From the IMG/VR virus record IMGVR_UViG_3300043493_000021, positions 79-64,078 of that record: a stretch of DNA of 64,000 nt. One strand, 5' to 3'. This DNA is from a virus. The position numbers were made by a program, and so were the translations under genes. Below, in pieces: positions 598-60,881 of the stretch. Each line of letters begins with the position of its first letter. Position 1 is the stretch's first letter. The notes under the pieces are model-generated. The model ran no database searches. It had not been told where the DNA came from and saw only the letters and a program-made list of their open reading frames with translations.

Positions 598-3174
598 TCA
601 TGTGGTGATCGAGATGAGTTCGGCGTTCGACAAGCCGCGTGGCCAGTAGACGACGCGCCGGATGTAGCCGTTCAGCGGGCCGTCCCCGAGCGGGGCATGA
701 TTGCCGATGCACAATATGTTCGTGTCGGTGATCGCGGTGAAGGCGACCGTGCCGATCGCATTGGCGTTGAACGATCCAGACGCGGTCAGCGAGACTGGCC
801 ACGACCCGGCGATCTTGGAGATGCCGTTCGATGCCGTGCCGACGAGGTCGCCACGCGCGACGACGTTGTTGAGCTTCGAGATAAACGCCTGACCCGTGTT
901 GTTGGTCTCGCGCGCCCTCAGCCACATCGTTGTTTGCGCGATGTTCGCGCCCTGGTTCGTCAGCCCGACGACATCGTGCGGCCCGACCGCGTCGAAGGCG
1001 CGGGGGTAGATGAACTCGGCGAAGAGCGAACTCTCACGCGCGTTGAACCACGCCCCGACCGGCACGGCCACGTTATCGATGGCCCTGGTGAGCCCAACCG
1101 TCGTCGTGGGAATGAGGCTACTCACCGTGCCGCCCACCTCGACCTGGGCTCCCCACAGATATGTTCCTTCGCCCGGGACACCGACGTAAGCGGGGCCGTA
1201 AAATCCAGCCAGCGGCGTGTTGCAGTTGTTTATTCCGAGGCGGACTTGCGTCGTGCTCCCGCCCGCCACGCAACCCGGCATGACACACCGGTAAATTCCG
1301 TTGCCAACACTGGTGATGGTTCCGCCGCCAGCGGCCACCGTGCCGGTCAGTAAATCGAAGTTATTGATCGCCGCCGGTTGCCCGCCACCCAGATCATCGA
1401 AGATCAGTTGCAAGTATCTGATCTCTCCCATCTTGGCGTAGACGGAACATGTGTAGGTGCCATTCGGTATCCCCACGCCGATGGCCTGATAGCCATGAAA
1501 TGAATTGGTCGCGTCATTATCCATCTTCGTGAATGTATTGGTGCCGTCGGGCGCGACGCCGACGCCAGGGGTGAGCGTCGCTGCGTTCTGGAACCACCCG
1601 GATCCCGGCGTGCTCGGGAACACAAGATTGGTTCGCGCGGCCTCGATCAGCAAACCGTTGAGGACTTTGGTGGCGGGGTCGTAGTCCCACCGAGGCTGGT
1701 CGATCGCCGCCGCCCGCATGACCCCGGCGCTATCGGTGTAGGTTCCCGTGCTCGCCCGGCTGAACCGGACATGCGGATCGAGCGCGCCGGGGGTCAGAAA
1801 GCTCATGTCGAGCGTCGGCCCGAGGAAGGTGACGGCTTGCATGTCGGTGTCCGGAAGCACCCTCGGCCAGTAGGAGACGCGGCGGATGTAGCCACTGGCG
1901 TTATTGGCTCCGCCATTCACCACATCGACCGTGAAGATCTTTATGCCGTTGGTCGCGAACTGAGCGTATCCAGCACTTAGGGTAGCGCTGGTCGCGATCG
2001 GTCCCGCGTTCGCGCATATTTTCGCCTGACCCGGGGCCCAGGATGACACGGCCTTGGAGACCACATTCGGGAAGACACCATTGGCCGTGGTCAGGATATT
2101 GGACCCATCGAACTGACCCATGGCATTCGCGCTGGCGGATAAATAAATCGGGGTCGCATCTCCAGCGTTGATCCCACTTCCGATCACGCGACCGTTGGTT
2201 GGAGTTTGCATGAAAGAAACGAACTCCGCGAACCACGTCCCGGCTGACCCACTGAAGCCACTCAGAGCGGCTCCCGGATAAAGCAAAACGTCTTGCGACC
2301 GCTGAACCGAGGTAACGGTCGTGGGAATATAGCTACTCGCGTATTTGTTGATCTCGCATTGCGCGCCCCAGATCAGGATGCCGTTGCCGGGGGTGCCCAC
2401 ATAGGGGGGGAAACCGCCTCCGAGATTGTCTTTCGTCAGAGAGGCCAGAAGTCTACCGCTCGTGGCGGTGCCGAGCACGCCGGTAACCATGCAACGATAC
2501 ACGCCGTTGCCGACATGACGTATCGACGCGGTCGTGCCCCCGGCGACGGCCCCGATCGCTCCCGCCAGCAAATCGAAGTTCGCGGACACGGAGATACTTA
2601 CACCATCATCGATACCCCAGATGAGGTAACGATTTTGCGCCGCCTTGGCGTAGATGCTCATGGTCAAGGTCGCGGACGCGGGGAACGGGATGTTGATCAC
2701 AATCAACGTGTGGAAATTGTTGGCGGCGTCTTCCGCCAGTTTGACCATGGTGTTCGTGCCGTCCGGCGCGATGCCGGATCCGGGAGTGAGCGTCGCGTTC
2801 AGCGCTTGCCATGGCGAACCAAACGTCGCGGACGGCCAGGCGAGGTTCGTGCTGGCGTCCTCGATCAGAAGCCCTCGGGCCTCCAGCGTCGCCGGGTCGT
2901 AGTCGAAACGAGGCGTGTTGATCGCCGCCGAGACCATCACGCCGCTACTATTGAAATAGGTTCCGGTGGTCGCCCGCGTGAATGTGCCGCCGGATCCGAG
3001 ACTTTCGCCCATGAAGCTCCGGTCGAACGTCGGGCTTCGCGATGATGCCAGGGGGCCGGGGCCGAGCTTCTGGTAAGCGCCCGCGTTCCCTCCCAGGGGG
3101 ACGGGTTGGGCCAGCGCACTCGACGCGGCGAGCGCGGACGCCCCGCTCAGAAGGTGTCGGCGGGAGAGGTTCAC
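598..3174 (-). CDS. Fibre/spike-like protein with two tandem lectin-like (ConA/LamG-type) modules and an N-terminal Tat signal
   Basis: Two diverged copies of F(T/S)RA(T/S)TGTY..S.GVM..AAI..PR(F/W)DYDPAT....GLLIE...TNL. N-terminus MNLSRRHLLSGASALAASSALA-Q. The GTG start overlaps the upstream stop (GTGA). Confidence 0.7.
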   Translation of the reverse strand: MNLSRRHLLSGASALAASSALAQPVPLGGNAGAYQKLGPGPLASSRSPTFDRSFMGESLGSGGTFTRATTGTYFNSSGVMVSAAINTPRFDYDPATLEARGLLIEDASTNLAWPSATFGSPWQALNATLTPGSGIAPDGTNTMVKLAEDAANNFHTLIVINIPFPASATLTMSIYAKAAQNRYLIWGIDDGVSISVSANFDLLAGAIGAVAGGTTASIRHVGNGVYRCMVTGVLGTATSGRLLASLTKDNLGGGFPPYVGTPGNGILIWGAQCEINKYASSYIPTTVTSVQRSQDVLLYPGAALSGFSGSAGTWFAEFVSFMQTPTNGRVIGSGINAGDATPIYLSASANAMGQFDGSNILTTANGVFPNVVSKAVSSWAPGQAKICANAGPIATSATLSAGYAQFATNGIKIFTVDVVNGGANNASGYIRRVSYWPRVLPDTDMQAVTFLGPTLDMSFLTPGALDPHVRFSRASTGTYTDSAGVMRAAAIDQPRWDYDPATKVLNGLLIEAARTNLVFPSTPGSGWFQNAATLTPGVGVAPDGTNTFTKMDNDATNSFHGYQAIGVGIPNGTYTCSVYAKMGEIRYLQLIFDDLGGGQPAAINNFDLLTGTVAAGGGTITSVGNGIYRCVMPGCVAGGSTTQVRLGINNCNTPLAGFYGPAYVGVPGEGTYLWGAQVEVGGTVSSLIPTTTVGLTRAIDNVAVPVGAWFNARESSLFAEFIYPRAFDAVGPHDVVGLTNQGANIAQTTMWLRARETNNTGQAFISKLNNVVARGDLVGTASNGISKIAGSWPVSLTASGSFNANAIGTVAFTAITDTNILCIGNHAPLGDGPLNGYIRRVVYWPRGLSNAELISITT

Positions 3175-3635
3175 TTCAGGCCGTAGCCGCTGAACTGATG
3201 GCCCGCGTCAGATGTCACGACGGAGACGGCACCAGCGGCGGGGGTGATCACGTAGCCCTGGCCTGGCACGATGCAGGTCGTGTCCCCGCTCGACGTCGTC
3301 CCGGAAGCGACCCCGATCTCGTTGACGCACATATTGACCGTCGCCGAGGGTGGGTTCTGGAGGAAGCCTCCAGCGGTCCGATTGCCCGCCGCGATCGCGG
3401 TGACGGCGGCGTTGCCCGTGGTCACCGTCTTCACGTCGAGGGTGACGATGGTCCGTGCCGCCGGGCTGGTCTGGATGGATCCCGTGCCGGGCGTTCCGCC
3501 GGAAGCTCCGGTCGCGGGCACCCATTTGGTGCCGTCGAAGACGTAGTTGAAGGCTTCGTGACCACCCGGCACTGACTGAGCCGAGGCGGATCCGGCGATG
3601 AGGAGGGCCGTGAAAGCGGCGAGAAGCCAGCGCAT
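3171..3635 (-). CDS. Exported hypothetical protein (Sec signal peptide), beta-rich
   Basis: MRWLLAAFTALLIAGSASA-QS; Thr/Gly/Val-rich 154-aa ORF coupled to the downstream gene. Confidence 0.75.
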   Translation of the reverse strand: MRWLLAAFTALLIAGSASAQSVPGGHEAFNYVFDGTKWVPATGASGGTPGTGSIQTSPAARTIVTLDVKTVTTGNAAVTAIAAGNRTAGGFLQNPPSATVNMCVNEIGVASGTTSSGDTTCIVPGQGYVITPAAGAVSVVTSDAGHQFSGYGLK

Positions 3636-3658
3636 GGCGGGTCTCCGTCTGACCCTTC

Positions 3659-3716
3659 CTTGGCCCCGGAGCGGGACGGGAATGGCCGGTTTCAGGAGCC
3701 CGGTCCGGCGCGGACC
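3659..3716 (-). promoter_or_regulatory. Conserved structured leader element, copy A
   Basis: Minus strand: GGTCC-GCGCC-GGACC hairpin, 22-nt spacer, then CCGTCCCGCTCCGGGGCCAAG (21 nt identical to 29107-29127), ending 24 nt before ATG 3635. Confidence 0.6.
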
Positions 3717-3719
3717 TGA

Positions 3720-6700
3720 CTATTCGGTGGTCTCAAGCTCTCTAGCAGGTTTTTCTTTTACCCCGTAACTCCTGCGGATTACCTCGGAGCGATCGAGTTG
3801 TTTCTGATCCTCGCGACGAGCGGCGCGTCGTTCACCGAGTTGCGCGGCCTTCTCGGCGGCGGCGTTCCCCGCGTCGGGGCGGAGCCAGTCGACGATCTTG
3901 CTGGCGCGGCCCGCCTCTTCGCCCGCGTCGGTCAGCATCTTCGTCGCCTCTTCGTCCTTGCCGTCGTTCACCAGACGTTGCACCTCGGGCATGATCTCGG
4001 CGGTGTCGAATTTGATCATGTCTTCCCGCTTCTTGTTCGATCCGGCGGATGGCCCATACGGATAGCCGCGCGAGAGCGAACCAATCCCGGAGAAGTTGAG
4101 GAGCACCCGGGCGACGGCGAGCCCTCGTTCCCTCGCCGTGGGAGGGGCGTTCCCGACCCAGTGCGAACCCGGAGCGTTCATCGCGATGTAGATGTCCCTC
4201 TCCATTTCGATGGGGAACATCACATGGCTCATGTGTTTGGCGGTGCGCCAGACGTTCTTCAGATCGAAAGCATCGTCGGTCGGACGGCGATAGTCATGGC
4301 CGTAGTCGTCCTTGCCCGACATGAACTGGTTCGCGGCCTTATACATCGTGCTTTGCTTGCGTTCGAGGGTGCCCGCGAAATCGGAGATCCAATCGATCAG
4401 TTCCTCGCCGACCTTGCCCAGCGGCGTCCGCATGTAGAGGTATTGCGGGGTGGATCCGTAAGGCATGACCCGGGCCCGGTTCGTCTTCCCTGGTTCGTTG
4501 TCGGCCATCGGAAGGAGCCGGTTGATGGTCGATGGGATGAACAAAGATTTGAGCGGATTTTCCATGACGTAGTTCACCGTCTCATGGAAGCGCCGGACAT
4601 AACCCTCGGGGACGCTTTCTTCCGACTCCTTGTCATTCATATAATTATAGACCGCCTGGGAAGCGTGCTGGATCAGCATCCCGAGCATGTAGAACGCGAG
4701 CATATCGAGCGCGCCCGTCCACTGGGCCTTCCCCCGCATCCACTTCCTGAACTTTTTCGCCGCCTCCGGACCGGCCTCGGCTTCGACGTGATTGACGATG
4801 TGCATCGGCGCACCGGTCACCACGTCTTTGATGATGCCGAGGTTGCCGCCCGTGAACGACCGCGAGAACAAAAGGAACTGGGCGAGGGTGTTGGCGAGAC
4901 GCGACATGCCCTCGGGAGGGAGCGCCCCGGCATAGCGGTTCGCGAGATGCGCCGCCGCCGTGTAAGCCGCCGTCGGATGCCACCCAGCGGCCAGCCGATC
5001 CTCGGCGACCGCGAGACCGATGGCGATCTGGAGATCCATGACCCGGTTCCAGAGAAGCGTATTCATGGGGTGACGGATCAGCGCGGCCATGGCCTGACCG
5101 CCACGCGGAGCCTTCCCCGCGAAGTTGGCCAGGGCGTTGCGGATGTCCACGACGGCCTCGCCCACCAGGCCGAACCGCGATTTGTAAGTGAACTCGTTCA
5201 TCAGCGAGACGGGATCGCCGATGAAACCGCGCATGACCGGTGCCATGCCGTGTGCCACCAGCGTATCGATCCGGGGATCTTCCGCCATTCTGGCTCGCCG
5301 CCCGACGGCCAGGGCGGTGAGAGCGACGAACTTGCCCCCGGTAAATAGCGGGCCCGCCCGGCCAAGCTCGACCTGAAGATGGATCAGCGGGGATTGCATG
5401 ACGAAGTGGGTGCTGACCGCTTTCACGGCCATGAACCCCCGCATCAGGGCTCCCGGAGCGGCCCGGAAGACCGCGTCCAGCGGGGCCCGGAAGGCTTCGT
5501 CGATGAAGATGGCTTGCTTCTCGAAGACCGGGTTGCCCTTCGAGTCTTCGACGACCTTCCCGTAACGATCGAACGTCGGAACCATCTTATACATGGAGGG
5601 GTGACCGGCCATGTAGAACCCTCGTTTAGGGGGGGCTCCCGACGTCTGGGTATAGCCAGCCGCGATGCCATTCTTCGTGAGGGACATGATCGCCTGAAGC
5701 AAATCATGCCCGGCGATGGCCGCGTGGATCCGCTCCAGAGCGCCGACGAGGCCGACGATGTCGTCGACCAGTTGGACGTTTGGACCATACTTCGCACGCG
5801 CCGCGTCGAGCGTGTCCTGGATCTCCTCATAGTTCCGGAACCGGGGGATCTCGGTCGTCAGGTTGGTGCCGAACGGGTGCATATCTGGCGTCGGCGTGCG
5901 GCCCCATCGCGCTCGCGGCGTTCCGCCCGGAAGGATCGCGTCGTCCTTGATGATGCGCCGCGCCTTCTTGCCGGGCTCCATGATCACCAGTTGCCGGGGC
6001 ATCCAGTAAGCCCAGCCCTCGGCGTTGGGATCGACCATTCCCCGGCTCTTCAGTTGATTCCAGTAGTCTTCCTGGATCGCTTTCAGACCATTGACGAGAG
6101 CCTTGCCTTTCGGTCCGAGCCCCTCGACGCCCATCTGGGTCGCGTCCCACCGGGCCCGCATCTGGGCCTCGTAACCCGGCTGGGGAAGCGGGGATGTGGT
6201 CGCGAGTTCACGGGCAAGCTTACGCTCGAAGACCGATTGCTCGGCGACCGCGCGTCCGATCGCCCATCGCTCGTCGATCTTCTGGGTGTCGCGGATCATC
6301 TGGGCCAGTTGGCCGAACTTGCGCTGACCCTGACGGATGTTGTTGGCGAATTTGAACGCCTCCTCCCCCGCCTCCTTCGGACCGAGGCGGAGCGGGGCCA
6401 CGAACTCCAGATAGTAGTGGCGGGCGTCTTCGTATTTCGGCTGATCCTGGACCCACTTAACCAGATCCTTGATCGGCTTCCCGGCTTCGAGCCCGAAGGC
6501 GTTATCTACTTCCTGGGTGGAGAATAGTCGGCCCTGGACTGCTCTTGGAGCGACCACCGGACTCCCTCCAGCGCCTGGACCACCTCCGGTGGGTGCGGCT
6601 GGGGCATTGCTTCCAGTCGGCGTTGGAAGTCCAGCAACTCGCTTCGCGGTTGGAACGGCGAGGGTATATCGATCATGTAGTCCACGGCTGGCTCTCCTCA

Positions 6701-9700
6701 TGGCGTCCAACGCCACGTCTGGAAGGATATATGTAGACGAATAGTTAATAATTCCATCCTGGGCCAGGAGTCGATTCAACGCATCGCCATACGCGATTTG
6801 CACCTCCGCATGTGTCATATCCCCGAGCACCATCAGCTTTTGGAAGATCGGGATCATCTCTTGCCGGTAGCCTTCATGCGATCTGGCCAGCGCGTTTCCG
6901 AAGCCGTTCGCCATGTAAGGGTTTTCGGTTCGCTGACTCGGATCCGGTAGCGATACGGTGAAGGTGTGTCCCGCCGGGATGTGGGCGACGACATTGGTTA
7001 TGCCAGGCGACGTCAGCATTTGCAGGTCGCCCGCCGAGATCGAGGTTTCGTTCGGGTGGTTGTGGTGGATCGTGTAGGCGTCGACCGCGCCGTAAGTGTG
7101 CGCCCGTTTGAAGGAGACGGTCAGCCGTTCGTTGGCCGTCCCGGCATGGATGATCCGCCCCGTGGCGTTCTCGACGACGGCGAGATGTTCAAACCCGGTC
7201 TGAGCGCCTCGGGAGAGCACGAACTCCATCGCCGCCTCATGCCCACCATCCGGATTTTGGACGAGGTGAAGCTCATCGGTGAAGTTCGGCACCTCGTCGT
7301 GCGCCCATTTTGAAACCGGTGGCGGCGGAGCGGGGGGTGCCGGTGTCGCGGCGCGGGGCTCGAAGAGACCGGCTTGCTCGACCCTCGGGGCGAACAATCC
7401 CTCGTCGGCGGCTTTCTGGTTTGGCTTCGTCAGACGTCCGGTCCCGGTCTGATCCCGCGCGATCTGGGCCTGAGCCGCCGACGGCCTCATCCCCGGCATC
7501 TCGACCTGGTTCGGATCGTTGCGGATCGTCGGCTCGCGCGGACCCCTCCCGGCGGACAAGTCGCCTTGCTTTTGTTCGACCGATTGATCTTCCCACGGGA
7601 CTTCCGTGACTTTCGATACTACGTCGTGGTGGAACTCGTGGCCTCTCGCCACGTCATGCGCCTCCAGCCGATCCTTGAAGTCTCCGACTTTATACCATGG
7701 CGGCTCTGGCTCGCCCGGCCTTGGTTCCGGGCGAGTATGAACGGTCCAAAGCGAGCCGGATGACTCAGCTTCAGGTTGATCCATTTCCCTTCTGGCCCGA
7801 GCCATGGCTCTTCGGCTGGGGACCGGCCTCATGCTTCGGAACGACCCAGGCGTGTTCGCCAGCATTCCGTTCTCGACCCCCGGCGCGTATTGCCGGGCTC
7901 CGTATCCCTCGTAGATCCGCCCCGAAGCGTCGCGGCCAAAGAGCCGTTGGATGGCCTGGACGAAGCGGCGGAAGATGTCGCGGAAGTGCGACCAGATCGA
8001 CCGGACGACGGCGTCCTGGATGTCCATCTCGTTGAAATGACGGTCCGTCATCGTCTCCGCGAAATACTCGGAGAGGTTCGTGTAACGGTAATTCTCGCGG
8101 GTTACCCGCATCCGAACCCGTGGATTGGCGGTGCCCGCTCCGGTGACCGTGACGCTCCTCATGGCCTCCGGATTTTGACCGTGCCGGGTGATCCAGTCGA
8201 CGGCATTCAGATCGGTCAGTTCCCGGCGTAGCTGGCCCTGGCCGTCCATAAACTCCCGCATCCCGGGGTTGTTTCTGAACCACCGCTCCCGCTGACGATG
8301 AAACTCCCTCGCGAGCGCGAGCCGATCTTCCCGGGGTAGCATCCGCTCCAGCGAATGCCACAACTCATGGACCATCGTATGCGGCACCGAGCCGTTGTCG
8401 ATCGCCGCCCGGAATAGAGAAACGACATGGCTCAGGGGGTCGTATAGCCCCGCCGCGCCATGGCCATGTTGCAAGATCCGGAGGCCGACATCGGTGAACA
8501 TATGCTCGCCGATGAACTGGATGAACTGATCAACCTCCCTGATCGCATCAGGATGGATCGTCGACGGTGGACGGTCCGCATGTTGCCGCGACCGATCCAG
8601 GTTCGCTTGCATCCGAAGCCGGTTGATCATCGCCTCGGGGCCGCGACGGATCACACCCACCCGAGAATTATTAAGAGCGGTCCGCATCGGGGCCATACCA
8701 CCGGCCCTCGGCGCGAGGGAGAAGAAGCCGCCCTGGCCCTCTACTGGGGGTTCTGGGCCTTCGCCCGCTTCTCCAACGCCACCAGAAGTATCGCCTGGTC
8801 GTACAGCTTCGTTCTCTCCGCGTCGGACAATCCCACGGACCTGGGTGAGGAACTGGCTGACGAGGCCGGGGAGGGCTTTCCCTCCTGCAAGGTCTGAAGC
8901 GAGCCCGGTAAGCGCGTCAGAGATTGGCCCTTTAGAACTGGCTTGCCGTTCAAGAATATCGAGAAGTTGCTCATTCTCGGTTTTAGCCCGGACGTTACCC
9001 TCGCGGTCAAGCTGATTGCCCGCCGCCGTCAATGACTCCTCGCCCCGGACCGCCGCGCCGAAGACCCGCTTGTTGCCACGCAGGTTGGCCTTCGCCCGGT
9101 CCAGAATGCGCGCCCGCTGGGGAAAGAGCGACTGGATGGTCGGGCCCATGCCCTCCATCTCGGTCTGACCGCCCTCGACATCGCGCGTATAGCCGGTCGC
9201 GACGATGTCTTTGACGATGCTCCGCGCTTGCTCGGAATTGTTCGGCTCCGCACGCGCCAGCACTGAGAGAGCGGCTACCTGCTGGGCCGGATCGGCGATC
9301 AGATCGCCGACGTGCGCCGCGTATCCGGGGGGCACGATGCCGTTGACGACGATGCCGAATGCCTCATCGCCGAGCTTGGCCAGCGCGTTGCCTTGCTGGA
9401 CCATCTGGCTCCGGGGCGGGAGCGAGGGGAGCGCGCGATCTCCCGGAAGCGCCACCTTGGCGCGAAGAACTTTGGCCGCGTCGATCGCGGTGCCGCTTCC
9501 CTCGGCGATGTTCTTGTAGGCCGCGAGCACGCGCATGTGTTCTGGCGTGTAGCCGTCCGCCTCGCGGTAGACGCGGGCTGGCATCTCGACATTTGGCTGA
9601 CCGGCGGCGGTCGCCCGGGTCGCGAGATCGTGCCGCTGGTGACCGTCGGCCACCCAATACTGACCGGAGTTGTCTTGCCAGGCCATGATCGGGCTGGCGA

Positions 9701-11816
9701 GATCGGACTCCCATTTGGTGGTGCCGCGAAGCACGCCGGTCACGCCTTGCTCGTCGCTCTCCTTGAACTGGAATCTCTTGGGATCGACCTGAAGCTGGTC
9801 GGGCCGAAGCATGACGTAAGCGCCAGTTTGCGGAGCGGCGGCGGTCGGTTCAGAGGTAACGGGCGTCGGTGTCGGCGTCGCGTCGCTTCCGATCGTCACG
9901 CCCGGAGCGACCTCGGTCGGCGTCGTCGGCGGCGTGACCGTCTCGACCGCTGGCGGCGTCGGTCCCGGCATCGGAATGACCGGGGGTGTTTCGAGCGGGG
10001 CTCGCGGTGCCGGGGGAGGAACCGGAGCCGGGAGTTGCGGTGTGGACTCTACTGGCGGGGGCGGCTGAACGGCGGGTGTCGTCCCCTCACTTTGCGCCGT
10101 CGTCGGCTGGGTGCGCTCGGCCTGGGGTTGCTCCACCGCTGGACCCGGATCGTCCACGCGAGGCGCGGCACCGGGAGCATACGTCTCATCCACCGCGCCC
10201 GGACGCCATCCTTCCGGTTTCGGCGGCTCCGGAACATTGGGAGGCCACCGCCGGTTCATCTCCTCTCGGGTCGCGTCCCATTCCCGTCGGTGAGCGTTGA
10301 CCCGATCGTCAGCCGACGGCGCTCCCCGGTAAGGACCGACCTCGGTGGAGGAAGACGCACCGGGCATTTCGATGTTGAGGTTCTCGGGATAGAGCCGACG
10401 ACCGAGCCCGATGGCGGCGTCTCGCGCGTCGCCCATGATCCTGTGTGGCGCATGGAACGCGGCCCCGGTGATCGCCTGAAGCGCCATCTCCTCGGGATCG
10501 CCGACATGCTCGGTCAGAGCCTGGGACGGGCTGAACCCATACTTCACGATGGCGTTGTCGATGATGGTCTGGGTCTGCATGATGCCGACCATCGATCCGC
10601 TCGCCGTGGCATAGTCGATGAGCCCGCCGAGCACCGGGCCTTTCAGGCCGGGAACGAGGCGACCGAACAACTGAGCCCCCGGAATCGACATGAGACCCGC
10701 GCTGACCAGGCCGCTTGCCATCGCGGCATCGTGCGCTTGCTGGGGTGACGCGCCCCTCTCCTGGGCCCGCTCGAACATCCCCTCGTAACCCTCAAGGAAG
10801 CCGACGCCCATCACTCCCGGGAGCCCGCCGATCGCCGCGCCGACCAGGATCGGGGCCATGCCGCCAGCCATTCCGGCCAGTTTCACCACCGCGCGTCCCT
10901 CGTGAGAGACGTCCACCGGGGCGTTTCGTTCGCTCTCCCTCCTGGCGGTTTCGACGATGCCACCCGCGAGGGACGGCTGGGGGTTGGCCGTGACCGTGCC
11001 GAGACGAGCTTTGAACTCAGCCCGCTGGCTTTCATTCATATATTGATAGCCGGATGGATCTTGCTCGTCGGGGACCGTCTGACCGGCGTCGATCTTTTGG
11101 ATCGCGGTCATCTGACCCGACGTCAGAAGCGCTCCGAACCGGTCCACCATGCGAGGGACCGCCGCGATGGTGGTCGCCAGCCCGGTCTCGGCACCCTGGC
11201 GGAACTTGTTGAACGCGGCCCCACTCAGTCCCTGGCCGGGAACCCTGGTTTCCAGTTCCTCATCGCCGCCCGTTTGCTCGGCATAAGTGAGGCCGGACGA
11301 GTCGGGCTGGCGCTGGTCGGGGTAGATCAGCCCCGAACGGACCTGTTCAGAAGTATAAGGTGTCGGAGCGATGTCGAGCCGCTGAACGATCGGGCGCTTA
11401 TTCGGGTCGGGAGACGGCTTACCCGAGACCGAGGGTGGGGGCGTGGAAGGCGTGAAACCTTCACTCGCCAGCCGCGTGTATTCGTCCTCGGTCTCCTGGT
11501 CCGGGGTCATGGACTGACGCCGCGTCATGGCGGGAGGTTGCGGTTGCTTCGGTGGCTCCTCGGTCGTCCACTTCCAGGGGTCTTCGGTCTTTTCGACCGT
11601 GGGTTCAGCCGTGGCTTTCGGCTTTTCAGTCGTGGATTTCGCCGGTTCGGGCGTGGGTTCAGGCGTGGCGGGAGCGGCGACCTTGGCTGGCGGAGGGGTG
11701 GCTGGACGCGGTGGGACCGTTATCCAGTCCCCAGGATCCTTGGCTCCGCCCGCTTTCGGGACGGTGACCCAGTCGTCCGCCTCGTCAAGAGCCGTCTGGG
11801 CCATAGGTCGTGCCAT
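3720..11816 (-). CDS. Giant polyvalent internal-virion/ejection protein (ParB-like, zincin metallopeptidase, JAB-like domains)
   Basis: 2698 aa. ParB-like YWVADGHQRH (~9630-9660); zincin MVHELWH (8355-8369) with downstream SEYFAE (~8055-8070); JAB-like GFEHL...IHHNHPNETSISAGD (7026-7190). Position after the internal virion genes is typical of podovirus ejection proteins. Confidence 0.7.
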   Translation of the reverse strand: MARPMAQTALDEADDWVTVPKAGGAKDPGDWITVPPRPATPPPAKVAAPATPEPTPEPAKSTTEKPKATAEPTVEKTEDPWKWTTEEPPKQPQPPAMTRRQSMTPDQETEDEYTRLASEGFTPSTPPPSVSGKPSPDPNKRPIVQRLDIAPTPYTSEQVRSGLIYPDQRQPDSSGLTYAEQTGGDEELETRVPGQGLSGAAFNKFRQGAETGLATTIAAVPRMVDRFGALLTSGQMTAIQKIDAGQTVPDEQDPSGYQYMNESQRAEFKARLGTVTANPQPSLAGGIVETARRESERNAPVDVSHEGRAVVKLAGMAGGMAPILVGAAIGGLPGVMGVGFLEGYEGMFERAQERGASPQQAHDAAMASGLVSAGLMSIPGAQLFGRLVPGLKGPVLGGLIDYATASGSMVGIMQTQTIIDNAIVKYGFSPSQALTEHVGDPEEMALQAITGAAFHAPHRIMGDARDAAIGLGRRLYPENLNIEMPGASSSTEVGPYRGAPSADDRVNAHRREWDATREEMNRRWPPNVPEPPKPEGWRPGAVDETYAPGAAPRVDDPGPAVEQPQAERTQPTTAQSEGTTPAVQPPPPVESTPQLPAPVPPPAPRAPLETPPVIPMPGPTPPAVETVTPPTTPTEVAPGVTIGSDATPTPTPVTSEPTAAAPQTGAYVMLRPDQLQVDPKRFQFKESDEQGVTGVLRGTTKWESDLASPIMAWQDNSGQYWVADGHQRHDLATRATAAGQPNVEMPARVYREADGYTPEHMRVLAAYKNIAEGSGTAIDAAKVLRAKVALPGDRALPSLPPRSQMVQQGNALAKLGDEAFGIVVNGIVPPGYAAHVGDLIADPAQQVAALSVLARAEPNNSEQARSIVKDIVATGYTRDVEGGQTEMEGMGPTIQSLFPQRARILDRAKANLRGNKRVFGAAVRGEESLTAAGNQLDREGNVRAKTENEQLLDILERQASSKGPISDALTGLASDLAGGKALPGLVSQFLTQVRGIVRRGENEAVRPGDTSGGVGEAGEGPEPPVEGQGGFFSLAPRAGGMAPMRTALNNSRVGVIRRGPEAMINRLRMQANLDRSRQHADRPPSTIHPDAIREVDQFIQFIGEHMFTDVGLRILQHGHGAAGLYDPLSHVVSLFRAAIDNGSVPHTMVHELWHSLERMLPREDRLALAREFHRQRERWFRNNPGMREFMDGQGQLRRELTDLNAVDWITRHGQNPEAMRSVTVTGAGTANPRVRMRVTRENYRYTNLSEYFAETMTDRHFNEMDIQDAVVRSIWSHFRDIFRRFVQAIQRLFGRDASGRIYEGYGARQYAPGVENGMLANTPGSFRSMRPVPSRRAMARARREMDQPEAESSGSLWTVHTRPEPRPGEPEPPWYKVGDFKDRLEAHDVARGHEFHHDVVSKVTEVPWEDQSVEQKQGDLSAGRGPREPTIRNDPNQVEMPGMRPSAAQAQIARDQTGTGRLTKPNQKAADEGLFAPRVEQAGLFEPRAATPAPPAPPPPVSKWAHDEVPNFTDELHLVQNPDGGHEAAMEFVLSRGAQTGFEHLAVVENATGRIIHAGTANERLTVSFKRAHTYGAVDAYTIHHNHPNETSISAGDLQMLTSPGITNVVAHIPAGHTFTVSLPDPSQRTENPYMANGFGNALARSHEGYRQEMIPIFQKLMVLGDMTHAEVQIAYGDALNRLLAQDGIINYSSTYILPDVALDAMRRASRGLHDRYTLAVPTAKRVAGLPTPTGSNAPAAPTGGGPGAGGSPVVAPRAVQGRLFSTQEVDNAFGLEAGKPIKDLVKWVQDQPKYEDARHYYLEFVAPLRLGPKEAGEEAFKFANNIRQGQRKFGQLAQMIRDTQKIDERWAIGRAVAEQSVFERKLARELATTSPLPQPGYEAQMRARWDATQMGVEGLGPKGKALVNGLKAIQEDYWNQLKSRGMVDPNAEGWAYWMPRQLVIMEPGKKARRIIKDDAILPGGTPRARWGRTPTPDMHPFGTNLTTEIPRFRNYEEIQDTLDAARAKYGPNVQLVDDIVGLVGALERIHAAIAGHDLLQAIMSLTKNGIAAGYTQTSGAPPKRGFYMAGHPSMYKMVPTFDRYGKVVEDSKGNPVFEKQAIFIDEAFRAPLDAVFRAAPGALMRGFMAVKAVSTHFVMQSPLIHLQVELGRAGPLFTGGKFVALTALAVGRRARMAEDPRIDTLVAHGMAPVMRGFIGDPVSLMNEFTYKSRFGLVGEAVVDIRNALANFAGKAPRGGQAMAALIRHPMNTLLWNRVMDLQIAIGLAVAEDRLAAGWHPTAAYTAAAHLANRYAGALPPEGMSRLANTLAQFLLFSRSFTGGNLGIIKDVVTGAPMHIVNHVEAEAGPEAAKKFRKWMRGKAQWTGALDMLAFYMLGMLIQHASQAVYNYMNDKESEESVPEGYVRRFHETVNYVMENPLKSLFIPSTINRLLPMADNEPGKTNRARVMPYGSTPQYLYMRTPLGKVGEELIDWISDFAGTLERKQSTMYKAANQFMSGKDDYGHDYRRPTDDAFDLKNVWRTAKHMSHVMFPIEMERDIYIAMNAPGSHWVGNAPPTARERGLAVARVLLNFSGIGSLSRGYPYGPSAGSNKKREDMIKFDTAEIMPEVQRLVNDGKDEEATKMLTDAGEEAGRASKIVDWLRPDAGNAAAEKAAQLGERRAARREDQKQLDRSEVIRRSYGVKEKPARELETTE

Positions 11817-27548: not shown

Positions 27549-28457
27549 TTAGTTCGTTGGGTAGGCTCCGAACCCGCACCGCCAGTCGTCCCAACCGATG
27601 TAATACCGTTCCGTCCCTTTAACCATGAGGTTATTGGTCGAGAAATCGGTCTGGATTTCGGTCCGGAATGGCTTGCGGTCAAGGCAAATGAGCCCCCCTG
27701 AGTCGGAGAGCACGAACCAGGCATATGGCGACGTCAGGAAGTCCATCACCACGTAGCCGTCGCGGAGATCGTCGTTCTCCTTGACCGACCATGTGTCGTT
27801 ATTCGTGGTTCCGGGGCGGAGTTCGGTCTCCATGAGGCGTTTGGCGACGTGGCGAAGCTCGACCGGGACCACCAGCTTCTTGCCCTGGCTCCCGTAGAGC
27901 AATCCGGCTTCGTCGCGGAAGCGGCGAATCATGTTGTTAGCCAGGATCAGCGAGTTTTCGTTCAGCCCGACCTGATTGGTCGGCGTGTTGGGCACCTGGT
28001 AGCCGTCAACGGGGTGGTTCGTAGCGAAGAGGGGGAGGTTATCGCCGCCGATGGTGGCGTTCAGCACGTTGCCCGTGTTGAGAGGAGCCGCCCCGTTGAT
28101 CTCTTTCATCTGGCGGAACGATCTGGCGAGCCCGAGGTTCGCCGCGTCGAACGCTGACTTGTAGAGGTTGTCGTCGAGCGCTTCCTCGGTGAACGCATAG
28201 CCGAGGGAGAAGACGACGTGGAGATGATTCCAGGTAAACCGTTGCCCGGCGAGGTTATCGAACTGGGTCGGCGTGCCCGCGAGCTTCAGTTGCGGCAAGG
28301 GCAAATACCGCACATGGACCGTGCGCTCGGCCTCCATGTTCGACGGGCCCTTCGCGTAGATCTTGGTCCACTGGGTATCCATCTCGCGATAGAGACCCTT
28401 GATCTTGCGGACGCCTGGGAGGAGCAACGCGGGGATTTGCGAGGTTGTGATTGCCAT
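27549..28457 (-). CDS. Major capsid protein (Mu gpT-like family)
   Basis: LLLPG...S.MEAE...G.P.QFD...GYAFTEEALDDNLY...LARSF..MKE..GA..LN.G...GGDNLPLF...HP...KLVVP.EL...A.RLM, a gpT-like HK97-fold pattern. Confidence 0.85.
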   Translation of the reverse strand: MAITTSQIPALLLPGVRKIKGLYREMDTQWTKIYAKGPSNMEAERTVHVRYLPLPQLKLAGTPTQFDNLAGQRFTWNHLHVVFSLGYAFTEEALDDNLYKSAFDAANLGLARSFRQMKEINGAAPLNTGNVLNATIGGDNLPLFATNHPVDGYQVPNTPTNQVGLNENSLILANNMIRRFRDEAGLLYGSQGKKLVVPVELRHVAKRLMETELRPGTTNNDTWSVKENDDLRDGYVVMDFLTSPYAWFVLSDSGGLICLDRKPFRTEIQTDFSTNNLMVKGTERYYIGWDDWRCGFGAYPTN

Positions 28458-28460
28458 GGT

Positions 28461-29081
28461 TCAGATCCCCAGTCCCTGAAGGTTTTCCACGAGGGATGGA
28501 TTGATCCTCACCAGGATCCACGGATTGGTGTTCGTCGGGTCTTGCGGCCCGCCCGCGACGCCAGCCAACCCGACAATGCGGAGCGGAAGCGCCGCCGTCG
28601 TGTTGATCGAGGCCCCATCGAGCAAAAGCGACGAGAGACCGGCGGCGCTCGGCACCCCGTTCGTCCCCGTCACCCAGTTGATGTTCTGGCCCCTCCAGGT
28701 TTCGGCCCATGGACCGCCCTGAACCTGAGCCCGGTAGGTCGTGAACGGGTCATCGATCACCGCGCACGGGATATCCACCCCAGCGGGCGGCGCGGCACCG
28801 GCCTTATAGGCCCCGTTCTGGCCGTGCATCGTTTGCTGGAAATTGATATCGTAATAAGGATAAACCCCGGCGAATACTCCGAGATATGAAGTATCGTTCA
28901 AGGCGGCGATAATCACCTCACCCTGATTGACACCGGCACCTCCGGTTCGCACCAGATCGCCGATGGCGATATTCCCGGTATATCCATTTTTGATTTTATA
29001 GGCCGATAACCCGTAGGTGGGTGCCCCGACCATTTGGTTGGAGCGGATCAGGCCAAGTGGCGAGATGGAATTGAGCGCCAT
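28461..29081 (-). CDS. Capsid decoration/cement-like protein
   Basis: PLGL...NIAIGDLV...GVFAG..Y...VIDDP...Y..Q...LPLRIVG...TN...V.IN, a conserved gene type upstream of the MCP. Confidence 0.6.
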   Translation of the reverse strand: MALNSISPLGLIRSNQMVGAPTYGLSAYKIKNGYTGNIAIGDLVRTGGAGVNQGEVIIAALNDTSYLGVFAGVYPYYDINFQQTMHGQNGAYKAGAAPPAGVDIPCAVIDDPFTTYRAQVQGGPWAETWRGQNINWVTGTNGVPSAAGLSSLLLDGASINTTAALPLRIVGLAGVAGGPQDPTNTNPWILVRINPSLVENLQGLGI

Positions 29082-29106
29082 GGATGGGGCTTCCGTCCCG
29101 GAGATG

Positions 29107-29165
29107 CTTGGCCCCGGAGCGGGACGGCATACCCTGTGAATGAAAACCCCGGCCCGGCGCGGGCC
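29107..29165 (-). promoter_or_regulatory. Conserved structured leader element, copy B
   Basis: Minus strand: GGCCC-GCGCC-GGGCC hairpin, 23-nt spacer, then CCGTCCCGCTCCGGGGCCAAG and CGGGACGG (closing an 8-bp stem). ATG 29081 lies 26 nt after the core. Confidence 0.6.
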
Positions 29166-29179
29166 TTGGCGTTAGTGCC

Positions 29180-29211
29180 CAGCGTTGGAGTATTTACAAG
29201 AAAGTGTCAAG
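29180..29211 (-). promoter_or_regulatory. Possible promoter for the capsid operon
   Basis: CTTGACA followed by AT-rich CTTTCTTGTAAATAC in an intergenic gap. No convincing -10 at 17-bp spacing. Confidence 0.3.
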
Positions 29212-33396: not shown

Positions 33397-33614
33397 CCGA
33401 GATACCTCCTCCGCCGAGGCTTCACCCGAAAACCAGGAAACGGATCTTGCCACTCCCGAGCACGCCGCTCCGGGGGAAGCCGGTCGAACTGAGACATCCG
33501 AGTAACCGCCCGTTCGACCGCGCCAGCGTAGCCGTCGCGCGAAAAGTCATCGACGAACGGCGGAGCATCCGGCGGCAAAGGCTCGGGATCGGTGAAGATC
33601 GGCCTACTCATCAC
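33393..33614 (-). CDS. Hypothetical protein
   Basis: 73 aa, coupled between the portal and the Cys-rich gene. Confidence 0.45.
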   Translation of the reverse strand: MMSRPIFTDPEPLPPDAPPFVDDFSRDGYAGAVERAVTRMSQFDRLPPERRAREWQDPFPGFRVKPRRRRYLG

Positions 33615-36040: not shown

Positions 36041-37750
36041 CTATGTCCGGGCTATCGCGTAAGGCACGCCCATCGGCTTCCGATACCGTTTACGCTCCAA
36101 CTCCTGCATCTCAAATTCTATCTTCCGCAAGACCACGCCGTTCTTCCTGATCCAGCCCAAACCCATCGACATGCAATCCACGTAATCGTCATGCGCCCCA
36201 TACGGAAAAGACGCGCACTCATCGATCACATCCTGAGCCCAGTCCTTGTCCGGCGCATGGACCACACCCCCATCCCACGTCTCGATCCCGGTCGCCGCGT
36301 CCTTCCGGTAATCCCCTGAAAACAAACCCTCGACCGCCTTCAACCGAGCCACCTTCGACGTCTCGACCTTCACCAAAACCGTGATCCACGCTCCGTCCTG
36401 ATAGATCCGGCAGATCTCGTCATGCACGTCCCGGCCCCGCGTTCGGTGCTCGATCAAAAGGTAATCCGCCTTCCGCCGACGGCACGTCACCGCCACCCTT
36501 TCGACCAGTTCCGCCAACGGCAACCGAGCCCGCCACGCCTCCAAAAGCAAAACCAGCGGCTCACCTTCCTCCCCGGCGAACGCGCCCAAGACCACGCACG
36601 CATTGTAATCGTTCTGAGTGCCCTCCTCGACCGCCGTGTCCAGAATAACGAGCACGGTCCCCAGTTCCGGGTAATCATCCCGTTGCCACAACCGCCACCA
36701 GTCCTTCCGAATGATCGAACCACCCCTCACCCCAGGGATCTGATTGTATTGCGAATCCCACGCATACTGGCCCTTTTCAGCCTGAAGAGCCCGCACCAGA
36801 TCGGGCGGAAATCTCTCAGGCCAGCACAACGTCCCCTCCGCCTTCGCCATCAAAGACCCTGGTAAAACCCTCGGCTCGCCCCGCGCATTCGTCGTCAGTC
36901 CCGCCAGCAACGTCCCATCCGGACCCAGAGCACGAGGGTCCGTCCAAACCTGATCAGCCTCCCCATCCTCGTTCCGCCGCATGACCACCCGAGAAATCCG
37001 TAACGGATCAAATTCCATTGGTATCGAGATAAACTCGTAGCCCTGGCCATACTTAATAAGCGTGCCAGTAGCGTCATCTTCATGCGTGCGTTGCTGAAGA
37101 TTGATGACCACGCTCTTCCCCAGATCGTTCAGCCGATCCGGCATGATCTCCCGAACCCACTTGTTCGTCGAACCGCGAACATCGTCCGACTCAACATTAT
37201 TTGGATTATTAAGATCGTCACAAAGGATGCGATCACCGCGCCAACCAGTAGTGCCGCCACCAGTAGAAGTAACCCGCTTCCAGCCCGTTTTAGCGTTCTC
37301 AACGACCTCACTCCCCTCCCGCGTCAGCTTCACCCGGTCACCCCAGCACAAACGATAAACCGGATCATTCACGATCCGGGCGAATCGGATGTTGTCCCGC
37401 TCCGGAATGCCCGTCGAATACGACGCACTCAAATACCGGAGCCAAGGCATGTTCTGAGGACCCCACTCCCACGCGGGCCACAAACAATTCAGCAACGAAG
37501 ACTTCATAGACCCAGGCACCACATTAATGTTCACCCGGTTCAAATGACCGTCCGTCACCGCCATCAAAACATCGCACAAGCAGTCTAAAACCCAGCCCTC
37601 AATTAGCTTTTTTTCCGGCTCCAGCACCCGCCAAAACATCCGGACAAACGACAACAAATCGTCCTCCGCGTCCTTCGCCATCGCCAGGATCTTCCGACGA
37701 CGAACCAGTTCAGCCTTCGCCGCCTCCCGAACCGCCTCGCTCGCCGACAT
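36041..37750 (-). CDS. terL: Terminase large subunit
   Basis: NINVVPGSMKS (Walker A), G.RGDRILCDD (Walker B), QQRTHEDD, W.SQY.Q.P, DTA, FPYGAHDDYVD nuclease end. Start taken at ATG 37750. Confidence 0.92.
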   Translation of the reverse strand: MSASEAVREAAKAELVRRRKILAMAKDAEDDLLSFVRMFWRVLEPEKKLIEGWVLDCLCDVLMAVTDGHLNRVNINVVPGSMKSSLLNCLWPAWEWGPQNMPWLRYLSASYSTGIPERDNIRFARIVNDPVYRLCWGDRVKLTREGSEVVENAKTGWKRVTSTGGGTTGWRGDRILCDDLNNPNNVESDDVRGSTNKWVREIMPDRLNDLGKSVVINLQQRTHEDDATGTLIKYGQGYEFISIPMEFDPLRISRVVMRRNEDGEADQVWTDPRALGPDGTLLAGLTTNARGEPRVLPGSLMAKAEGTLCWPERFPPDLVRALQAEKGQYAWDSQYNQIPGVRGGSIIRKDWWRLWQRDDYPELGTVLVILDTAVEEGTQNDYNACVVLGAFAGEEGEPLVLLLEAWRARLPLAELVERVAVTCRRRKADYLLIEHRTRGRDVHDEICRIYQDGAWITVLVKVETSKVARLKAVEGLFSGDYRKDAATGIETWDGGVVHAPDKDWAQDVIDECASFPYGAHDDYVDCMSMGLGWIRKNGVVLRKIEFEMQELERKRYRKPMGVPYAIART

Positions 37751-39826: not shown

Positions 39827-39876
39827 TTGACGTGTTTTTATCTGACTAGCCTAACCCGCTCCGGGGTCACGGGGTT
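39827..39876 (+). promoter_or_regulatory. Putative promoter plus third copy of the leader core
   Basis: TTGACG-N16-GCCTAAC immediately followed by CCCGCTCCGGGGTCA closed by AACCCG/CGGGGTT. Confidence 0.45.
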
Positions 39877-40060
39877 GAGGAACAAAAATATCGCTACCCT
39901 GGCAATCCAGGCGATGACGTGGGGCCGGTTCATTCCGCCGCGTTGACACTAGAACCCAACTGACTTTTGAGCCTTCCTGAGCGCCCGATCATCGGACGCT
40001 GAGGTGGGCTCACATTGAGTCTGACGGTGCCCGGACGGTTATCCGGGCGGAGGCTATAAC

Positions 40061-59826: not shown

Positions 59827-60023
59827 CCCATTTCCGGCTCCGATGGGTGCGGCTCGGCGATCACGTCCATGTGCGGTTCTTCTCGGGGAAGCGCGAGGAC
59901 TGGGGCCACGGCAAGAACGGCGATCTGTGCTTCAGGGTGGAGGAATGGGAGTCGTTCCAACGGTGCTTCAACGATCACTTTGACGACCACGTCACGATCA
60001 TCCTGGAGGACGGAAAGCCGTGA
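59823..60023 (+). CDS. Hypothetical protein
   Basis: GTGA-coupled; G.HVHVR.F.G......GKNG.LCFR.EEW. Confidence 0.5.
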   Translation: MTHFRLRWVRLGDHVHVRFFSGKREDWGHGKNGDLCFRVEEWESFQRCFNDHFDDHVTIILEDGKP

Positions 60024-60026
60024 AAA

Positions 60027-60073
60027 AGAAGCCAGCCAGGATCGTCGCGCGCCGCCTCGCGGGACGAGACCAT
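60027..60073 (+). repeat. 47-bp perfect direct repeat, copy 1
   Basis: AGAAGCCAGCCAGGATCGTCGCGCGCCGCCTCGCGGGACGAGACCAT, identical to 60358-60404. Confidence 0.95.
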
Positions 60074-60307: not shown

Positions 60308-60350
60308 TGTGGCTGACCATGGGAGTTGGCGTGCCGCCAGCTTCGCCGCC

Positions 60351-60881
60351 TTGAGCGAGAAGCCAGCCAGGATCGTCGCGCGCCGCCTCGCGGGACGAGA
60401 CCATGCGGTGATCACCGTGCATGGCGGCGGGGGCACCTACCGCCGCGAACCATGCGAGAAATGTCCATGGCGCAAGGACACGGTCGGCGAGTTTCCGGCT
60501 GATGCCTTCCGATACTCGGCGAACACGGCGACCGACGGCGCACGCGCACTGGGCGATATAGACGCGGCGATGCACACGTTCGGGTGCCACGATAGCGGGG
60601 CCAGGAAACCGGCGATCTGCGCTGGGTATATCTTGCGGAGCCAGGACGCCATCGGCTGGCGGATCGGTGCGTCGACGGGCAAGTTCGATCCGGCCAAGGT
60701 CAGTTCAAGCGTTCCGTTGTTCGACAATTATTATGAGATGGCGGTCGCCAACGGGGTGTCGCCGGAGGATCCCGCGTTGCGGTGGTGTAAGCCGCACGAT
60801 CCGCGTGAGCCATTCCCGAGATCGCGGAAGCTGATCGCGGACGCTATCGAGGCGGCGATGACGAATTGGAACGAACCATGA
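60351..60881 (+). CDS. Zn-binding protein, DUF6283-like
   Basis: EPCEKCPWRKD..GEFP..AF..SA.T...FGCH.......ICAG. Start uncertain (TTG 60351). Confidence 0.5.
   Translation: MSEKPARIVARRLAGRDHAVITVHGGGGTYRREPCEKCPWRKDTVGEFPADAFRYSANTATDGARALGDIDAAMHTFGCHDSGARKPAICAGYILRSQDAIGWRIGASTGKFDPAKVSSSVPLFDNYYEMAVANGVSPEDPALRWCKPHDPREPFPRSRKLIADAIEAAMTNWNEP
60358..60404 (+). repeat. 47-bp perfect direct repeat, copy 2
   Basis: Identical to 60027-60073; encodes KPARIVARRLAGRDH. Confidence 0.95.

Follow-up and report, generated by a model that had tools for sequence, protein, structure and literature searches.

Two covarying RNA leaders predicted to hide the ribosome-binding sites ahead of capsid and tail genes in an uncultured soil phage

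Introduction

In tailed phages, expression of the late virion genes is generally taken to depend on transcription and on ribosome sites of fixed strength. In the lambdoid phages, the N-recognised hairpin boxB stands in two operon leaders, as part of nutL and nutR, and is near-identical within one phage while differing between phages. The RNase III sites of phage T7, described by Dunn and Studier in 1983, reportedly occur both after promoters and within operons.

The Cluster K mycobacteriophages carry a 13-bp repeat, the start-associated sequence (SAS) GGGATAGGAGCCC, in 11-19 copies per genome, mostly before non-structural genes (PMC3203893). SAS and extended SAS are oriented repeats with a ribosome-binding site a few bases before the start codon and imperfect inverted repeats just upstream; the consensus differs between subclusters, and a role in translation was suggested (PMC3203893).

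The element described in this study is a structured leader that occurs twice in one phage genome, as copy B ahead of a decoration-like and a capsid gene and as copy A ahead of a tail unit. From comparison of the sequences, the B family, A as its syntenic paralogue and the concerted evolution of A and B within genomes are newly described here.

The phage and the genes around the leaders

The window, meaning the whole stretch of 64,000 nucleotides that was analysed, covers the greater part of a 70-kb IMG/VR contig from an uncultured soil phage. Among the runs listed as containing this phage, none was an RNA run. Its virion module consists of minus-strand genes running from 39.3 kb down to 0.6 kb and includes the small and large terminase, a probable portal gene, a 1566-aa protein that carries a lytic transglycosylase domain, and tail proteins. 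Beyond 40 kb come the genes for replication and recombination (DnaB, ERF); the phage encodes both an ERF-type annealing protein and an exonuclease. The following genes adjoin the leaders:

28461-29081, minus strand: 206-aa gene that follows B; its product is probably a capsid decoration or cement protein (AlphaFold2 and Foldseek)
27549-28457, minus strand: major capsid protein, Mu gpT-like (PF10124, phrog_371), starting 3 nt past the 206-aa gene
3720-11816, minus strand: 2698-aa virion (ejection-type) protein gene, its end 3 nt before hairpin 1 of A
3171-3635, minus strand: 154-aa protein with signal peptide, downstream of A; the gene varies among strains
598-3174, minus strand: 858-aa tail protein (phrog_5939, E = 2e-110), overlapping the end of the 154-aa gene

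The gene order at A is 2698-aa virion protein, 154-aa signal-peptide protein, 858-aa tail protein. For the 206-aa protein, the AlphaFold2 model had a mean pLDDT of 80, and its best Foldseek matches were capsid decoration proteins with weak scores (E about 1e-3). The 858-aa tail protein (598-3174, minus strand) has an internal tandem duplication, and its gene carries direct repeats of 41-95 nt with a spacing of ~1218 nt and 70-74% identity (repeat families D1, D2, D9 and D13). The early-gene region contains a 57-nt direct repeat (60017-60073 and 60348-60404, plus strand) whose copies are 93% identical and 331 nt apart.

Sequence and position of copies A and B

An earlier note on this DNA had reported a repeated 5' leader with an identical 21-mer and a compensatory base change, and both copies proved to be real. 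A covariance model (R1) made from an alignment of 14 related leaders, with copy A left out, recovered A as the sole other significant match in the window. The parts of the two copies are:

29079-29172, minus strand: leader copy B, full covariance-model match ending with the ATG (29079-29081) of the 206-aa gene; R1 78.8 bits, E = 2e-15; fold z = -2.76
3633-3722, minus strand: leader copy A, from the TAG stop (3720-3722) of the 2698-aa gene to the ATG (3633-3635) of the 154-aa gene; R1 40.6 bits, E = 5.5e-7
29151-29165, minus strand: hairpin 1 of B, GGCCCG-CGC-CGGGCC; the helix covaries in the leader family
3702-3716, minus strand: hairpin 1 of A, GGUCCG-CGC-CGGACC
29107-29127, minus strand: 21-mer in B, tip of hairpin 2 (GUCCCG-CUC-CGGGGC and flanking letters)
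3659-3679, minus strand: 21-mer in A, tip of hairpin 2, identical to that of B
29205-29210, minus strand: -35-like TTGACA, ~40 nt upstream of hairpin 1 of B; putative promoter only, with a weak -10 (CAACGC)

The exact 21-mer was found at only two places in the 70-kb record, both on the minus strand, with zero matches at up to three mismatches expected by chance (100 shuffles); a search for it in IMG/VR gave no match beyond the window's own record. Hairpin 1 of A and B differs by a single pair, U-A versus C-G, and this change is compensatory as the earlier note had stated, but we read the stem as 6 bp with a 3-nt loop instead of a 5-nt loop. Both leaders end 4-5 nt ahead of the ATG.

A TTGAC/TTGCA box was present at the same distance as in B in 12 of 22 related leaders, and promoter scores of individual leaders were not significant. 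Counted from the putative start, the leader element begins 10-20 nt downstream. Promoter scores ahead of A were no better than those of shuffles.

Predicted fold and the hidden Shine-Dalgarno sequences

Single-sequence folding identified the 21-mer as the tip of one long imperfect hairpin that begins right after hairpin 1. Its elements were located as follows:

29086-29150, minus strand: long hairpin 2 of B, base GGGGUUUUC paired with GGAAGCCCC, ~26 bp overall
3639-3701, minus strand: long hairpin 2 of A, base GGGCUCC paired with GGAGACCC; the stems below the tip differ from those of B compensatorily
29090-29094, minus strand: Shine-Dalgarno GGAAG of the 206-aa gene, on the 3' side of the base helix, with 8 nt between it and the ATG
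3643-3646, minus strand: Shine-Dalgarno GGAG of the 154-aa gene, in the base helix, 7 nt before the ATG

The leader is built from a GC-rich hairpin 1, closed by a 3-nt loop, and a longer, imperfect one of ~26 bp, the tip of which is itself a hairpin with a 3-nt loop; in the base of the long hairpin the 3' strand holds the Shine-Dalgarno, 4-9 nt ahead of the AUG. From the tip down to the base, the letters of A and B differ while the pairing is kept (AUUCC/GGAAG in A, UAUGC/GCAUC in B). This architecture was the minimum-energy fold, or near it, in nearly all leaders examined, with predicted stabilities of -35 to -45 kcal/mol. Compared with shuffles, z was negative for every B-type leader (-0.05 to -3.95), whereas the A-type copies alone folded no better than shuffles (z = -0.45, -0.17 and +0.48).

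The structure covers the ribosome-binding region, as had been proposed, through the base of the long hairpin, which pairs the Shine-Dalgarno. The second stem to which this role had been assigned, CCGUC(CCG)/(CGG)GACGG, did not turn out to be a conserved fold. It can be drawn in A and B but is peculiar to B and the nearest relative of B, being weaker in A; among 22 leaders, 65.5% of it was paired versus 60.9% in shuffles, and forcing it cost 10-25 kcal/mol in most relatives.

An alternative pairing (P1ext) is available to the GGGG segment after hairpin 1, which can pair with a conserved GCCC(C) upstream of hairpin 1 instead of with the downstream GCCCC. The resulting conformer with an extended hairpin 1 lies only 2-8 kcal/mol above the optimum. 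In the family alignment the support for P1ext was modest (76% paired, a double change in two pairs).

The leader family in related phages

Homologues of the 206-aa protein were collected from IMG/VR, JGI metagenomes and Logan assemblies and formed at least 233 clusters at 90% identity, all from uncultured phages; among cultured phages no homologue was found. Upstream of most homologues, a TTGAC/TTGCA box is followed ~40 nt on by a small hairpin (NNCG-YGC-CGNN) and then, after a gap of 0-3 nt, by a hairpin of 63-66 nt whose base GGGGCUUUC is paired with GGAAGCCCC. The tip is variable in sequence, is nearly always a 5-7-bp stem with a 3-nt loop, and is followed, past the base, by 4-9 nt to the AUG. 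By these alignments, B belongs to a widespread leader family heading decoration and capsid genes of uncultured phages.

Covariation in homologous leaders, which the earlier note had named as a check, was strong. Covariation in three helices was already present in the first alignment, which comprised 14 leaders and was made by MAFFT alone. Among 22 distinct leaders, 90.6% of cells were paired versus 77% in shuffles, and 13 of 16 pairs showed double changes; model-fitted alignments lean toward the R1 structure, but the MAFFT-only alignment gave the same result. None of 500 shuffles reached any of these measures, and slid controls on the 22-leader alignment were at most 62% paired. The base helix was 90% paired, with double changes in six of its eight pairs. 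Because G-U and U-G pairs outnumbered A-C and C-A pairs 33 to 6, the pairing is that of sense-strand RNA.

The B leader diverges no faster than the adjoining coding sequence. Strongly conserved letters were restricted to the GCCC(C) segment upstream of hairpin 1, hairpin 1, both strands of the base and the Shine-Dalgarno, and the middle is free. The loops vary among lineages and between hairpin 1 and the tip (CGC, CUC, CUU, AUC, UGC). A scan of the whole window against Rfam 15, also proposed earlier, gave no match at the gathering threshold, and permissive E values around A and B returned noise (E about 5).

No prophage relative was found in the genome collection searched. Homologues of the 154-aa protein shared only its C-terminal domain, in unrelated contexts and with no leader, and the C-terminus of the giant 2698-aa protein had one distant match in IMG/VR, likewise without a leader. 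The capsid relatives HTVC023P, CRP-901/902 and MW202675 also do not have this leader. MW202675 (L068, MW202675.1), the nearest GenBank relative by capsid (49.5% identity), has a different leader (site 2150-2410) that likewise hides the Shine-Dalgarno, with CUCC paired with GGAG. Upstream of its homologous decoration-like gene lie a tRNA-like sequence, a clear terminator and a TTGACA-N17-CATTAT promoter.

Paired copies in other lineages

Both copies were reached in only three lineages, the window's own and two others in which long contigs could be walked. In the second lineage (decoration protein 62% identical), an A-type leader (R1 43.7 bits, E = 7.5e-8) was located between a 2009-aa gene and the gene of a small signal-peptide protein. 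Its hairpin 1, GACCG-CUC-CGGUC, equals that of its own B copy except for one loop letter, and its tip, GCCCCG-CGC-CGGGGU, is an exact match to its own B copy; the 13-mer of this tip occurs only at the A and B copies within 33.6 kb. The A-type leader of the third lineage (58% identical; R1 31.2 bits, E = 4e-5) is located between a 1576-aa gene and the gene of a small protein starting MRWFLAA. Here hairpin 1 is identical in both copies, while the tips are not: the loop and inner pairs are common to both and the outer pairs are exchanged compensatorily. P1ext, too, has changed compensatorily in this lineage, with a double change from one copy to the other (GCUCC/GGAGC versus GAUCC/GGAUC). In more distant relatives without the giant gene (G005, G007-G009), whole-record R1 scans detected the B copy only.

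The loops of hairpin 1 and tip are CGC and CUC in the window but CUU/CUC and CGC in the second lineage. The tip follows the genome, with 18 of 18 letters matching within the window and 15 of 18 within the second lineage, versus 12-14 of 18 between them. The strands of the long stem, in contrast, follow the locus (16/24 for B versus the B of the other lineage, 9-10/24 for A versus B). On this evidence A is an old paralogue of B at a syntenic place. The syntenic A copies and the matching within genomes therefore indicate that the duplication is old and that the hairpins have been kept alike within each genome. Such matching of the hairpins within a lineage suggests one shared regulator.

The third site and other tip-like sequences

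The earlier note had counted a third, partial copy ahead of an AAA+ operon:

39853-39876, plus strand: third site, containing the tip-hairpin 12-mer CCCGCTCCGGGG, not a leader copy; R1 11.4 bits, E = 1.4; fold z = +0.48

This site scored near chance and could not be upheld as a copy of the element. It matches the core at 14 of 15 letters, and a 15-mer with at most one mismatch arises in 21% of random windows of the same composition; matches of the quality of the third site were obtained in 10-20% of random windows. Its intergenic position and sense strand leave some room for a shared short hairpin. The plus-strand copies of 12 and 11 nt of the tip (37394-37405 and 33465-33475) were discarded, their counts being within chance; there the tip complement is carried by minus-strand mRNAs, namely those of terL and of the gap following the portal gene. 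The AAA+ ATPase operon (39945-40060, plus strand) has its own TTGACA box at 39945-39950; the hairpin (GCCCGGA...UCCGGGC) that immediately precedes its GGAGG Shine-Dalgarno scores 10.5 bits and has no relation to the leader family. The reading of the element as an RNA operator or processing signal fits A and B, a sense-strand RNA structure over the ribosome-binding region whose two copies look jointly constrained; its extension to the AAA+ operon fell away with the third copy.

Copy A at a mosaic boundary

Copy A is part of a segment that was invariant among related genomes:

3603-3722, minus strand: island of 120 nt that spans leader A plus 11 codons at the start of the 154-aa gene, 100% identical in a relative with flanks of ~70% identity; metagenome contigs agree

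The relative is Logan contig L087 (island at 6174-6293), the tail protein of which is just 61% identical to that of the window. In metagenome contigs from other soils, variants of the 154-aa gene with 6-13% DNA divergence join a leader that does not vary; in one variant the sequence becomes wholly different a little upstream of leader A. From the invariant leader and the diverging flanks, A is therefore a conserved island at a mosaic boundary, and its perfect conservation there bears on how phages exchange tail modules.

The island behaves as a conserved junction for tail-module exchange, with strains diverging on either side. The C-terminal ~100 aa of the 154-aa protein recur in unrelated phages, either as C-termini of long fibre-like proteins or in small secreted proteins. 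The syntenic small proteins of the two other lineages also begin with a signal peptide (MRWFLAA, MRRIGIALA).

Possible modes of action

The reading we favour, with a probability of roughly 0.55, is that the leader acts as a translational or processing operator, off by default, and that its opening by one shared, hairpin-reading trans factor couples capsid and decoration protein synthesis with tail synthesis. The fold would keep translation initiation off by default and, at -35 to -45 kcal/mol, would be too stable for opening by the ribosome, and expression would need the base helix to be opened or removed. One shared trans-acting factor may read hairpin 1 and the tip and open both leaders; a single factor is suggested because hairpin 1 and tip of A and B are alike within a genome and differ between genomes. 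Such a factor might be an RNA-binding protein of phage or host, or else a nuclease specific for double strands that the hairpins guide, and shared opening would couple synthesis of capsid and decoration protein with that of the tail unit. Pairing of the GGGG with the upstream CCCC (P1ext) may help to set the open state. Because the loops differ between hairpins and lineages, recognition would be lineage-specific or mostly by shape. Among the small ORFs of the phage, no RNA-binding regulator was recognised with PHROGs or Pfam.

By analogy with the reading of boxB by N, hairpin 1 and the tip might be genome-specific address tags that a co-evolving, phage-encoded RNA-binding regulator reads on late virion mRNA, acting on its translation or processing. 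We put this forward tentatively. If it were true, a small post-transcriptional regulon would link production of the capsid and decoration proteins with that of the secreted protein and the tail unit.

Host RNase III offers a possible, if doubtful, explanation that involves no phage factor: the nuclease would cut the long helix and free the Shine-Dalgarno, leaving hairpin 1 as a protective 3' end upstream. This agrees with an irregular helix of ~26 bp whose length (63-66 nt) is kept while the decoration protein is 44-93% identical, since hiding a Shine-Dalgarno alone would need far less helix, and with the conservation of shape but not of loop sequence. Hairpin 1 abuts the helix, and the positions of B, behind a putative promoter, and of A, within an operon, are two settings in which T7 sites also occur. 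Such cleavage leaves unexplained, however, why tips and hairpin 1 of A and B are identical within a genome while the orthologues differ. Within-genome identity could also come from short-patch gene conversion, for which the phage has the ERF-type annealing protein and the exonuclease. It is on conversion that a self-contained translational attenuator or 5' stabiliser without a trans factor would rely. There the extended hairpin 1, near the 5' end, would form first and shield that end, and the base helix would close later, so that only young transcripts are translated. The small energy difference between the two GGGG pairings and the compensatory change in P1ext of the third lineage are consistent with such an attenuator, which we nevertheless regard as improbable. 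The covariation of P1ext in the family is modest, and conversion of two patches of 15-21 nt, 24-25 kb apart and within diverged flanks, would have to recur in three lineages.

Control of transcription, in which the extended hairpin 1 and a U-rich run form a terminator overcome by an antiterminator (the logic of lambda PR'-tR'-Q) or the hairpins serve as a nut- or put-like signal, appears unlikely. A GC-rich stem is followed by a UUUUCAUU-type run in B, L003, L004, L026 and L034, and the element lies 10-20 nt downstream of the putative start; a two-hairpin unit of ~85 nt that occurs twice per genome and is genome-specific also recalls boxB of nutL/nutR and putL/putR of HK022. A terminator scan, however, found none at A or B, and the U run is absent in A, in the A of the second lineage and in several B-type leaders. 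Termination becomes less likely because this run is the partner of the purine-rich Shine-Dalgarno (CUUUC/GGAAG) and is absent where the Shine-Dalgarno is GGAG (CUCC/GGAG in A). Moreover, no boxA-like sequence was found near the leaders, the loops are of 3 nt and not boxB-type pentaloops, and the fixed distance from helix to AUG points to translation. A role as a DNA element, either as a recombination-junction linker for the swapping of tail modules or as an operator or promoter for a DNA-binding protein, is very unlikely. Although A is an island of perfect identity with strains diverging on both sides and the tip is an inverted repeat, the compensatory changes in 22 sequences and the excess of G-U over A-C favour pairing in RNA. 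The leader ends at the start codon and includes the Shine-Dalgarno, and a junction role may be a by-product of conservation. An N4-type DNA-hairpin promoter, considered for the 3-nt loops, was rejected because the G-U bias means sense-strand pairing and because these are late genes of a phage in which no virion RNA polymerase could be recognised. The riboswitch-like motif that the earlier note had offered as one option is extremely improbable. A metabolite-sensing riboswitch would agree with a structured leader whose pairings can alternate and whose end is at the Shine-Dalgarno, but no unpaired nucleotide, junction or pseudoknot is conserved, only the stems and the Shine-Dalgarno with its partner strand; Rfam contained no match, and a ligand pocket is argued against because the middle of the leader is free to vary.

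Comparison with known systems

The T7 cassettes of promoter and RNase III site (among them R1.1, R3.8 and R6.5) and the RNase III site of the lambda N leader are likewise long irregular hairpins between late or middle genes. They are often located right after a promoter and right before a ribosome-binding site, there are several per genome, and their processing can unmask translation. With ~26 predicted pairs and a conserved length, the leader has the ~20 bp or more of mostly double-stranded RNA expected of an RNase III site. It has no sequence relation to the T7 sites, however, and the small hairpin 1 and the tips matched within a genome are not features of T7.

The likeness to the nut sites lies in a hairpin that is the same in two operons and differs between phages. 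Whereas boxB has a 5-nt GNRA-like loop, is accompanied by boxA, acts in early transcription and is not located beside a start codon, the leader has 3-nt loops and a helix that holds a late-gene Shine-Dalgarno. Both hairpins have GC stems of 5-7 bp with loops CGC and CUC, not the 5-bp stem and 5-nt purine-rich loop of boxB, and no match to boxA (CGCUCUUA-like, at most one mismatch) was detected near A, B or the third site. Intrinsic terminators also differ from A and B: the U run of B starts 4 nt past the perfect stem and A has no U run, while some relatives come closer to the terminator layout. GGA, the CsrA/RsmA target, occurs only in the paired Shine-Dalgarno strand and in no loop.

SAS belongs to actinophages and is present in 11-19 copies, versus two copies of the leader, which stand before virion genes. 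Near the three leader sites, one match to the SAS consensus was found, at B with three mismatches. There, the Shine-Dalgarno strand GGGACGGAAGCCC (29087-29099, minus strand) matches GGGATAGGAGCCC at 10 of 13 letters; we do not take this as evidence of relatedness, and the likeness probably reflects convergence of GC-flanked ribosome sites.

Mu com/mom and the leaders of T4 e and soc likewise lock the ribosome-binding site of a late gene in a stem. Release is brought about in Mu by the small hairpin-binding protein Com and in T4 by another transcript start; for the present leader, neither was a Com-like protein recognised nor is an internal promoter evident, and the helix is much longer. In the leader of the MS2 maturation protein, kinetic folding is at work, an alternative fold near the 5' end postponing the long-distance pairing by which the start is closed; virus type and structure are different, and the comparison is an analogy only.

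The present leader, absent from Rfam 15 and strongly covarying, is predicted to lock the ribosome-binding site of the most abundantly needed virion genes. Its second copy, before a tail unit, changes in step with the first, which would make it a concrete case of post-transcriptional coordination of head and tail and gives a handle for finding the factor. Hairpin 1, a long hairpin with a 3-nt-loop tip, a Shine-Dalgarno in the base and an end at the ATG are the features that define the leader family, and both A and B have them. In organisation, the T7 cassettes, boxB of nutL/nutR and the Cluster K SAS are the closest known systems, and the leader is a member of none of the three.
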